Origin: Escherichia coli
Lineage (GTDB): Bacteria > Pseudomonadota > Gammaproteobacteria > Enterobacterales > Enterobacteriaceae
DNA length: 64,000 nucleotides
Strand: one strand, 5' to 3'
Assembly: GCF_003334305.1 (NCBI RefSeq)
Contig: NZ_QOWS01000006.1
Shown: positions 20,397 to 20,936 of the stretch, piece by piece
Numbering within the stretch: the first letter of the stretch is position 1
How the letters are laid out: every line of letters starts with the position of its first letter
Notes under the pieces: model-generated
The model's database searches: none
Seen by the model: the letters and a program-made list of their open reading frames with translations, nothing else
What the model was told of the DNA's origin: nothing
Position numbers and translations under genes: made by a program

Positions 20397-20888
20397 GAAA
20401 CCTCGTGCGGTGGTTGTTTTTTTGATCTACGCAGTGATGCGTGTGTAAGTTTGCAATTCCGTTTGTTGTATTAATTTGTTTACATCAAAGAAGTTTGAAT
20501 TGTTACAAAAAGACTTCCGTCAGATCAAGAATAATGGTATGAGGCAGCGAATGCACCCGCTTTATGCATGGTTGAAGATGAGTTGCTTAAAAAGAAACCG
20601 TTTGTAAAGCTCAGCCTCAACCCCTCTCAATATGTAGAATGAATTTAAATTCGTTTTAATTGAATTAAAAATCACAAAATTGGTAAGTGAATCGGTTCAA
20701 TTCGGATTTTTATAGTTTAATAATCGTTAAAAAACTCCTTTCCTACGTAAAGTCTACATTTGTGCATAGTTACAACTTTGAAACGTTATATATGTCAAGT
20801 TGTTAAAATGTGCACAGTTTCATGATTTCAATCAAAACCTGTATGGACATAAGGTGAATACTTTGTTACTTTAGCGTCACAGACATGA

Positions 20889-20905
20889 AATTGGTAAGAC
20901 CAATT
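20889..20905 (+). promoter_or_regulatory. PdhR operator (AATTGGTAAGACCAATT) in the pdhR promoter
   Basis: Perfect inverted repeat matching the PdhR box half-sites ATTGGT/ACCAAT, about 30 nt upstream of the pdhR start codon. Confidence 0.8.
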
Positions 20906-20936
20906 GACTTCGGCAAGTGGCTTAAGACAGGAACTC

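Follow-up and report, generated by a model that had tools for sequence, protein, structure and literature searches.

The 540-nt AT-rich gap between aroP and pdhR in this Escherichia coli genome is very probably a composite bidirectional transcription control region, nearly all of whose length is protein-binding DNA. It was analyzed here within a window of 64 kb (64,000 nt; all coordinates are those of this window unless stated otherwise). The feature is real, had been correctly located in the initial annotation, and is already known in all main respects. Window positions 19000..21800 are 99.96% identical to E. coli K-12 MG1655 (1 base differs in 2801 nt), and the gap corresponds to K-12 121552..122091 (K-12 coordinate = window coordinate + 101155), flanked by divergent aroP and pdhR genes as in the K-12 orthologue. 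Both the bounds and the unusual composition reported for this noncoding stretch were confirmed; GC content is well below that of the whole window (0.51), only 0.47% of 540-nt windows are equally low, and the minimum within the gap, in 200-nt windows, is 0.295. The features recognized in and around the gap are listed in Table 1.

In the arrangement that we propose, the aroP-proximal third (20397 to approx. 20610) holds the aroP leader, the weak and strong TyrR boxes, and the promoters P1 and P2 with the overlapping, divergent P3; TyrR together with aromatic amino acids brings RNA polymerase to P3 and thereby shuts off P1. The middle (20610..20750) contains tandem ARG boxes, a Cra box and an ArcA-like repeat. 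The pdhR-proximal third (20750..20936), which is nearly invariant, contains the FNR site (-50.5), the start of pdhR transcription (20879) and, at +11 to +27, the operator through which PdhR represses its own operon when pyruvate is absent. The AT-rich DNA of the gap would also attract H-NS. The AT-richness of the gap can be attributed to AT-rich recognition sequences and promoter elements, and its length combined with its AT-richness to its being the shared, densely occupied control region of two divergent units. The initial annotation had described a PdhR operator in a gap with room for multiple promoters, nucleoid-protein binding or a small transcript; the identity of the locus, the operator, the promoters and the nucleoid-protein binding stood, while the small transcript did not. 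Specific regulator sites, as the main cause of the gap length, and the use of the gap as an islet insertion site had been overlooked.

Table 1. Features of the aroP-pdhR gap and its flanking genes (window coordinates; strand given where assigned)
Feature	Coordinates	Strand	Description
aroP CDS, aromatic amino acid:H+ symporter	19023..20396	-	457-aa ORF; K-12 annotation, 99.96% identity; left edge of gap
aroP-pdhR divergent intergenic control region	20397..20936		540 nt, GC 0.348
Candidate weak TyrR box	20444..20461		TGTAAGTTTGCAATTCCG; 8/12 consensus positions; block kept across genera
Strong TyrR box	20467..20484		TGTATTAATTTGTTTACA; best match in window, 10/12 positions, 2 mismatches; conserved; TyrR binding in the gap according to PMC7142922 and the work of Wang et al. 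1997 cited in it
aroP P3 promoter	20512..20540	+	-35 GACTTC 20512..20517, -10 TGGTAT 20535..20540, start near 20547; conserved block AGAATAnTGGTA
Published "promoter island"	20539..20881		K-12 121694, length 343; H-NS-bound in one ChIP-chip data set (PMC3661553 Table 1)
Conserved block GAATGCACCyGCTTTATG	20549..20566		Deeply conserved
A-rich block	20587..20609		TTAAAAAGAAACCGTTTGTAAAG; conserved across species, cross-species form TAAAAAGAAAnnnTTTGTAA
Central segment specific to usp-negative E. coli	20610..20746		In usp-positive strains the islet follows directly after 20609, with a strongly diverged allele to the right of the islet
Tandem ARG boxes (ArgR operator)	20638..20676		Cores TGAATTTAAATTCG 20640..20653 and TGAATTAAAAATCA 20661..20674; 18-nt boxes, 3 nt between
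Cra (FruR) consensus box	20686..20699		AGTGAATCGGTTCA; nearly invariant in Enterobacteriaceae; 185 nt before pdhR start
ArcA-site-like direct repeat GTTTAA-N5-GTTAAA	20715..20731		11-nt spacing; conserved as GTTTCA..GTTAAA
Second Cra-consensus match	20779..20790		TGAAACGTTATA; within nearly invariant stretch 20747..20876; -94 from pdhR start
FNR site	20822..20835		ATGATTTCAATCAA; 9/10 positions of TTGATnnnnATCAA-like dyad; centre 20828.5, 50.5 nt upstream of pdhR start
pdhR promoter	20844..20879	+	-35 TGGACA 20844..20849, -10 TACTTT 20867..20872, start A 20879; invariant across species
PdhR operator	20889..20905		AATTGGTAAGACCAATT; +11..+27 of pdhR transcript; palindrome AATTGGTnnnACCAATT, 14/14
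pdhR CDS	20937..21701	+	ATG at 20937; right edge of gap

Multiple promoters in the gap, as initially suspected, are in fact already published, i.e., P1, P2 and P3 of aroP (PMC7142922), the pdhR promoter (PMC2759082) and a "promoter island" (PMC3661553). In PMC7142922, P3 is described as divergent and TyrR-activated (citing Wang et al. 1997), and the mechanism established experimentally is a repression of P1 in which TyrR, bound to the strong and the weak box, draws RNA polymerase to P3 (with reference to Wang et al. 1997 and 1998). The same paper gives the -10 hexamer of P3 and its mutation; the -35 hexamer was located here by a 17-nt spacing and by the published number of differences from S. 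bongori. The strong TyrR box (consensus TGTAAAN6TTTACA) is found upstream of this -35 hexamer, approx. 71 nt before the inferred P3 start. A weak TyrR box adjoining the strong one is stated to exist (PMC7142922), and the candidate in Table 1 is its probable position. P1 and P2 overlap the P3 area on the minus strand; several hexamer pairs were considered for them, and none could be placed with confidence from sequence alone. Further into the gap, a RamA ChIP-seq site in the Salmonella orthologue overlaps the left edge of the block at 20549..20566 (PMC10268841). It is conceivable, if rather unlikely, that this block and the A-rich block at 20587..20609 bind a further regulator.

For the middle of the gap, the Cra consensus is reportedly TGAAWCSNTHHW (attributed to Ramseier), and this consensus has three matches in the 64 kb, two of which are in the aroP-pdhR gap (20688..20699, with the cross-species conserved form TGAATCGGTTCA, and 20779..20790). 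The direct repeat at 20715..20731 was likened to an ArcA site by comparison with the ArcA consensus. Each of the two ARG-box cores shows 1 mismatch, their centres are exactly 21 nt apart, and they are the sole two matches in the 64 kb (0.23 expected); moreover, 50 of 72 species have ARG-like boxes at both of these positions, as compared to 2.8% in shuffled spacers. This conserved placement fits the double peak-pair that ArgR ChIP-exo detected upstream of the aroP promoter in vivo (PMC4381063). Binding in vivo has also been reported for ArcA, with two ChIP-seq regions upstream of pdhR (PMC3798270), and for Cra and CRP: in a ChIP-exo study, Cra bound and repressed pdhR-aceEF-lpd, and CRP acted at the -35 (PMC5888115). 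The Cra consensus boxes at -185 and -94 have no obvious fit to that part of the published Cra account, which counts against the explanation favored here. Our assignment of Cra and ArcA to particular conserved blocks is putative, being drawn from the match of each block to a binding consensus.

At the pdhR end, the transcript start was mapped by 5'RACE to an A located 58 nt before the ATG, and the promoter sequence was given in the same study (PMC2759082). FNR occupies the region in vivo, as indicated by a ChIP-seq site at -50.5 of pdhR (PMC3688515) and by the listing of aroP/pdhR as an FNR ChIP-chip target (PMC1802558). The PdhR operator that had been noticed at 20889..20905 agrees with the published consensus at 14/14 positions and is the sole perfect match in the 64 kb, where 0.28 matches with up to 2 mismatches would be expected by chance. 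Autoregulation by PdhR is experimentally established, and genomic SELEX for PdhR identified the box AATTGGTaagACCAATT at K-12 122052 (14/14) with a peak intensity that is the highest by far among the rows shown in that report (PMC7660256). The gap is also listed as a target in the PlaR and SdiA SELEX experiments.

The same architecture was found well beyond E. coli. A PdhR scan using one genome per species yielded 80 loci, in 79 of which aroP was found; aroP was divergent from pdhR in all 79, with a gap of 524-653 nt in 78 (Serratia included). The alignment is conserved at the aroP leader, both TyrR boxes, AGAATAnTGGTA, 20549..20566, 20587..20609, 20688..20699 and 20715..20731 and is nearly invariant from 20747 to 20876, the least conserved stretch being 20607..20686. 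Distances between the blocks are almost fixed as well: 22 nt separate the P3 -10 block from GAATGCAC, i.e., the block at 20549..20566, in 75 of 79 sequences, 39 nt separate GAATGCAC from the A-rich block in 69 of 79, and 100-101 nt separate the A-rich block from the Cra box in 64 of 72. Spacing is 133-135 nt from the Cra box to the FNR site (71 of 72 sequences) and 67 nt from the FNR site to the PdhR box (78 of 79). Judged from these alignments, the gap architecture, including its spacing, dates back to the common ancestor of the Enterobacteriaceae. The Klebsiella and Raoultella loci (L068, L072-L078) carry an extra ~110 nt in the aroP leader, near window 20422..20435, between the ribosome-binding site and the TyrR boxes, which lengthens their gaps to 640-653 nt and leaves all downstream spacings unchanged.

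A/T tracts of at least 5 bases, which had been noted in the gap, are present at chance level (6 observed vs 5.5 in shuffles), while the imperfect dyads pointed out alongside them are slightly enriched (13 vs 5.5 in composition-matched shuffles, approx. 4% of which reach 13); this part of the earlier observation carries little weight. A search for tandem repeats in the gap found none.

The gap is also the insertion site of PAIusp, which carries the usp genotoxin gene and imu immunity genes and in which usp is read from P3 (PMC7142922). The published site is the same as the gap studied here; the difference is that this window presents the empty, usp-negative form. Among 5426 complete E. coli genomes, 4364 contain the full gap and the remainder match only its right end. 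A total of 1059 genomes carry usp and 4365 carry the central 140 nt of the K-12 type, which together account for all 5424 genomes with the locus (the usp-negative form representing 80% of complete E. coli genomes vs 19.5% for usp). In the genomes that match only the right end of the gap, e.g., CFT073, the islet spans approx. 4-6 kb and encodes a 594-aa Hcp-pyocin-HNH protein (annotated tssD) as well as immunity genes. Sequences of the usp-positive and K-12 types are homologous from aroP to approx. 20609, and near-identity resumes at 20747; between the islet and 20747, the usp-positive allele is strongly diverged, yet the A-rich block recurs in it, with the Cra box still present beyond a spacer of ~100 nt.

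In usp-positive E. coli, the islet is bracketed by diverged copies of the A-rich block (left GGATAAAAAAAAAGCAATTGTAAG, right TGTAAAAAGAAAACATAGGTAAAT), each at about the ancestral distance from its neighbouring conserved boxes (L005 of CFT073, 1..8000; L003, 2836..3000). These bracketing copies suggest a target duplication or an att-like site, and the usp paper makes no mention of such a flanking duplication (PMC7142922). It is conceivable, if rather unlikely, that the A-rich block at 20587..20609, shortly downstream of the P3 start, is a recombination target for Hcp-nuclease toxin islets (usp/PAIusp) and that P3 serves as a conserved, pre-wired expression socket for toxin cargo.

Several further observations were made on gap variants. 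In CFT073 (L005), aroP together with the adjoining part of the gap is only 94.4% identical to window 19002..20566, as compared to 99.5% for pdhR and its promoter; this split indicates that on its aroP side the usp-positive lineage has a diverged haplotype, the identity changing abruptly at window 20747. CFT073 also has an IS3-family element (L002, 1748..2961) within the conserved region next to pdhR, near window 20795..20802 and ~80 nt before the pdhR start, which cuts the pdhR promoter off from the distal conserved blocks. In Superficieibacter sp. 1612_C1 (L060, 2020..4000) the gap is 1978 nt long, and an Hcp-like ORF in it precedes a pyocin-like fragment that is out of frame, i.e., the gap holds a usp-like gene in decay; this islet has the left junction seen in E. 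coli, and neither the right-hand A-rich block nor the Cra box is present. Three gap matches in E. coli genomes are located on plasmid-labelled records. Two readings of these variants were rejected: the central 180 nt is not a scar of the usp islet, as this DNA is ancestral and does not resemble that of the islet, and central alleles with 80-90% identity are not "excised" usp haplotypes, as strain N96 bears a K-12-type variant.

An AT-rich middle in a gap that accommodates such an islet could be foreign or scar DNA silenced by H-NS, i.e., the promoter island of an acquired gene or a remnant of the usp islet. Consistent with this, window 20539..20881 is entry 121694_343 among the 78 promoter islands described by Panyukov and Ozoline (PMC3661553), most of which are associated with foreign genes, and the islet itself occupies this gap in nearly a fifth of E. 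coli genomes. Nucleoid-protein binding, which had been anticipated from the sequence, is borne out to the extent that one of the ChIP-chip studies compared in that paper marks the gap as H-NS-bound. However, H-NS support in this entry comes from that single study and the entry shows one weak foreign-gene association only (PMC3661553). Moreover, 78 enterobacterial species, including Serratia, share the gap along with its length and internal blocks, so that it is ancestral rather than acquired; the central segment has no similarity to islet DNA and bears ARG and Cra boxes conserved in position. The gap thus resembles the published islands in being AT-rich and H-NS-bound, and differs from most of them, which are tied to horizontally acquired genes, in being ancestral and full of specific regulator sites. 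A relaxed hexamer scan (i.e., an algorithm other than PlatProm, on which the islands are based) revealed no unusual density of promoter-like matches, with 5 matches in the gap and at least 5 in approx. 17% of 540-nt window bins. Overall, a foreign or scar origin of the middle of the gap is very improbable.

GC is strongly reduced in one other part of the window, at approx. 48200..56500 (540-nt GC down to 0.309 at approx. 55281), which contains the densest relaxed promoter-like matches in the window. Its K-12 counterpart in the alignment is the fimbrial operon yadC-yadK-yadL-yadM-htrE-yadV-yadN, with 95% identity from yadK on; identity to K-12 is only 85% over panC-panB and the 3' end of yadC, and ~340 nt within yadC are unaligned. 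The yadN/folK gap is likewise a listed promoter island.

The gap could also hide an unannotated small RNA or small-protein gene, e.g., as the product of P3, which is a real promoter directed into the gap and is followed by 60 nt of conserved sequence. The candidate ORF starts at a conserved ATG at 20551 (MHPLYAWLKMSCLKRNRL), the only one to recur in a search for conserved small ORFs; it is 8 codons or longer in no fewer than 45 of 79 sequences, with 18 codons as the commonest length. On the other hand, its length varies by genus (11, 18, 28 or 35 codons), conservation of the A-rich block persists where this block falls past the stop, between-genus differences are mostly amino-acid-changing, and a start near 20547 leaves no room for a ribosome-binding site before this ATG. 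As had been observed initially, the gap has no ORF of more than 60 aa; its longest ORFs are 43, 39, 37 and 36 aa, and an NCBIfam search of these four returned no match. The RefSeq annotation of K-12 MG1655 holds no feature between aroP and pdhR, and the literature describes P3 as non-productive in K-12 (PMC7142922).

Signals of a structured or terminated RNA were equally absent from the gap. The covariance-model scan proposed for small RNAs identified no Rfam family in the gap at threshold, nor at E values up to 10. The promoter and terminator prediction proposed alongside it, run as a strict consensus scan, returned 0 matches for both in the gap; the lack of strict sigma-70 matches is a point against the control-region reading, but the real promoters here are weak matches and activator-dependent. 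Sliding RNAalifold folds of 50 non-redundant enterobacterial sequences (<90% identical), compared with column shuffles on both strands, gave ~0 kcal/mol over 20400..20790, and the only consensus folding signals came from the FNR and PdhR palindromes. The predicted P3 RNA (20547..20700) folds no better than shuffles (z = -1.1). With no Rfam match, terminator, conserved structure or conserved small ORF, an independent small RNA or small protein, including the small transcript for which the initial annotation had left room, is not supported, and we consider such a gene highly unlikely; the sole extra transcript with experimental support is the divergent one from P3. The only significant Rfam match in the permissive-threshold scan lies outside the aroP-pdhR gap, i.e., a full-length match to tp2 (RF02030) at 21746..21859 on the minus strand of the pdhR-aceE gap (103 bits, E = 1.7e-19).

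A bidirectional control region remains the preferred explanation of the gap. When compared to the published K-12 aroP-pdhR region, the locus is the same, with identical hexamers, boxes and distances and no substantive difference. Moreover, aroP-pdhR has been described as an Fnr-mediated bidirectional switch (PMC3974632); with acs-nrfA, it is one of the two examples named there of a shared gap that couples divergent units via global regulators (Fnr, ArcA).

The present analysis adds the window coordinates of all elements and the ancestral spacing, which is unusual for a "promoter island", as well as two deeply conserved blocks and what may be a short duplication on either side of the usp islet. 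The picture of aroP or pdhR control is not altered by any of these additions. As a divergent control region, the aroP-pdhR gap is among the best documented in E. coli, and almost all of its stretches match a binding site that is published or positionally conserved.
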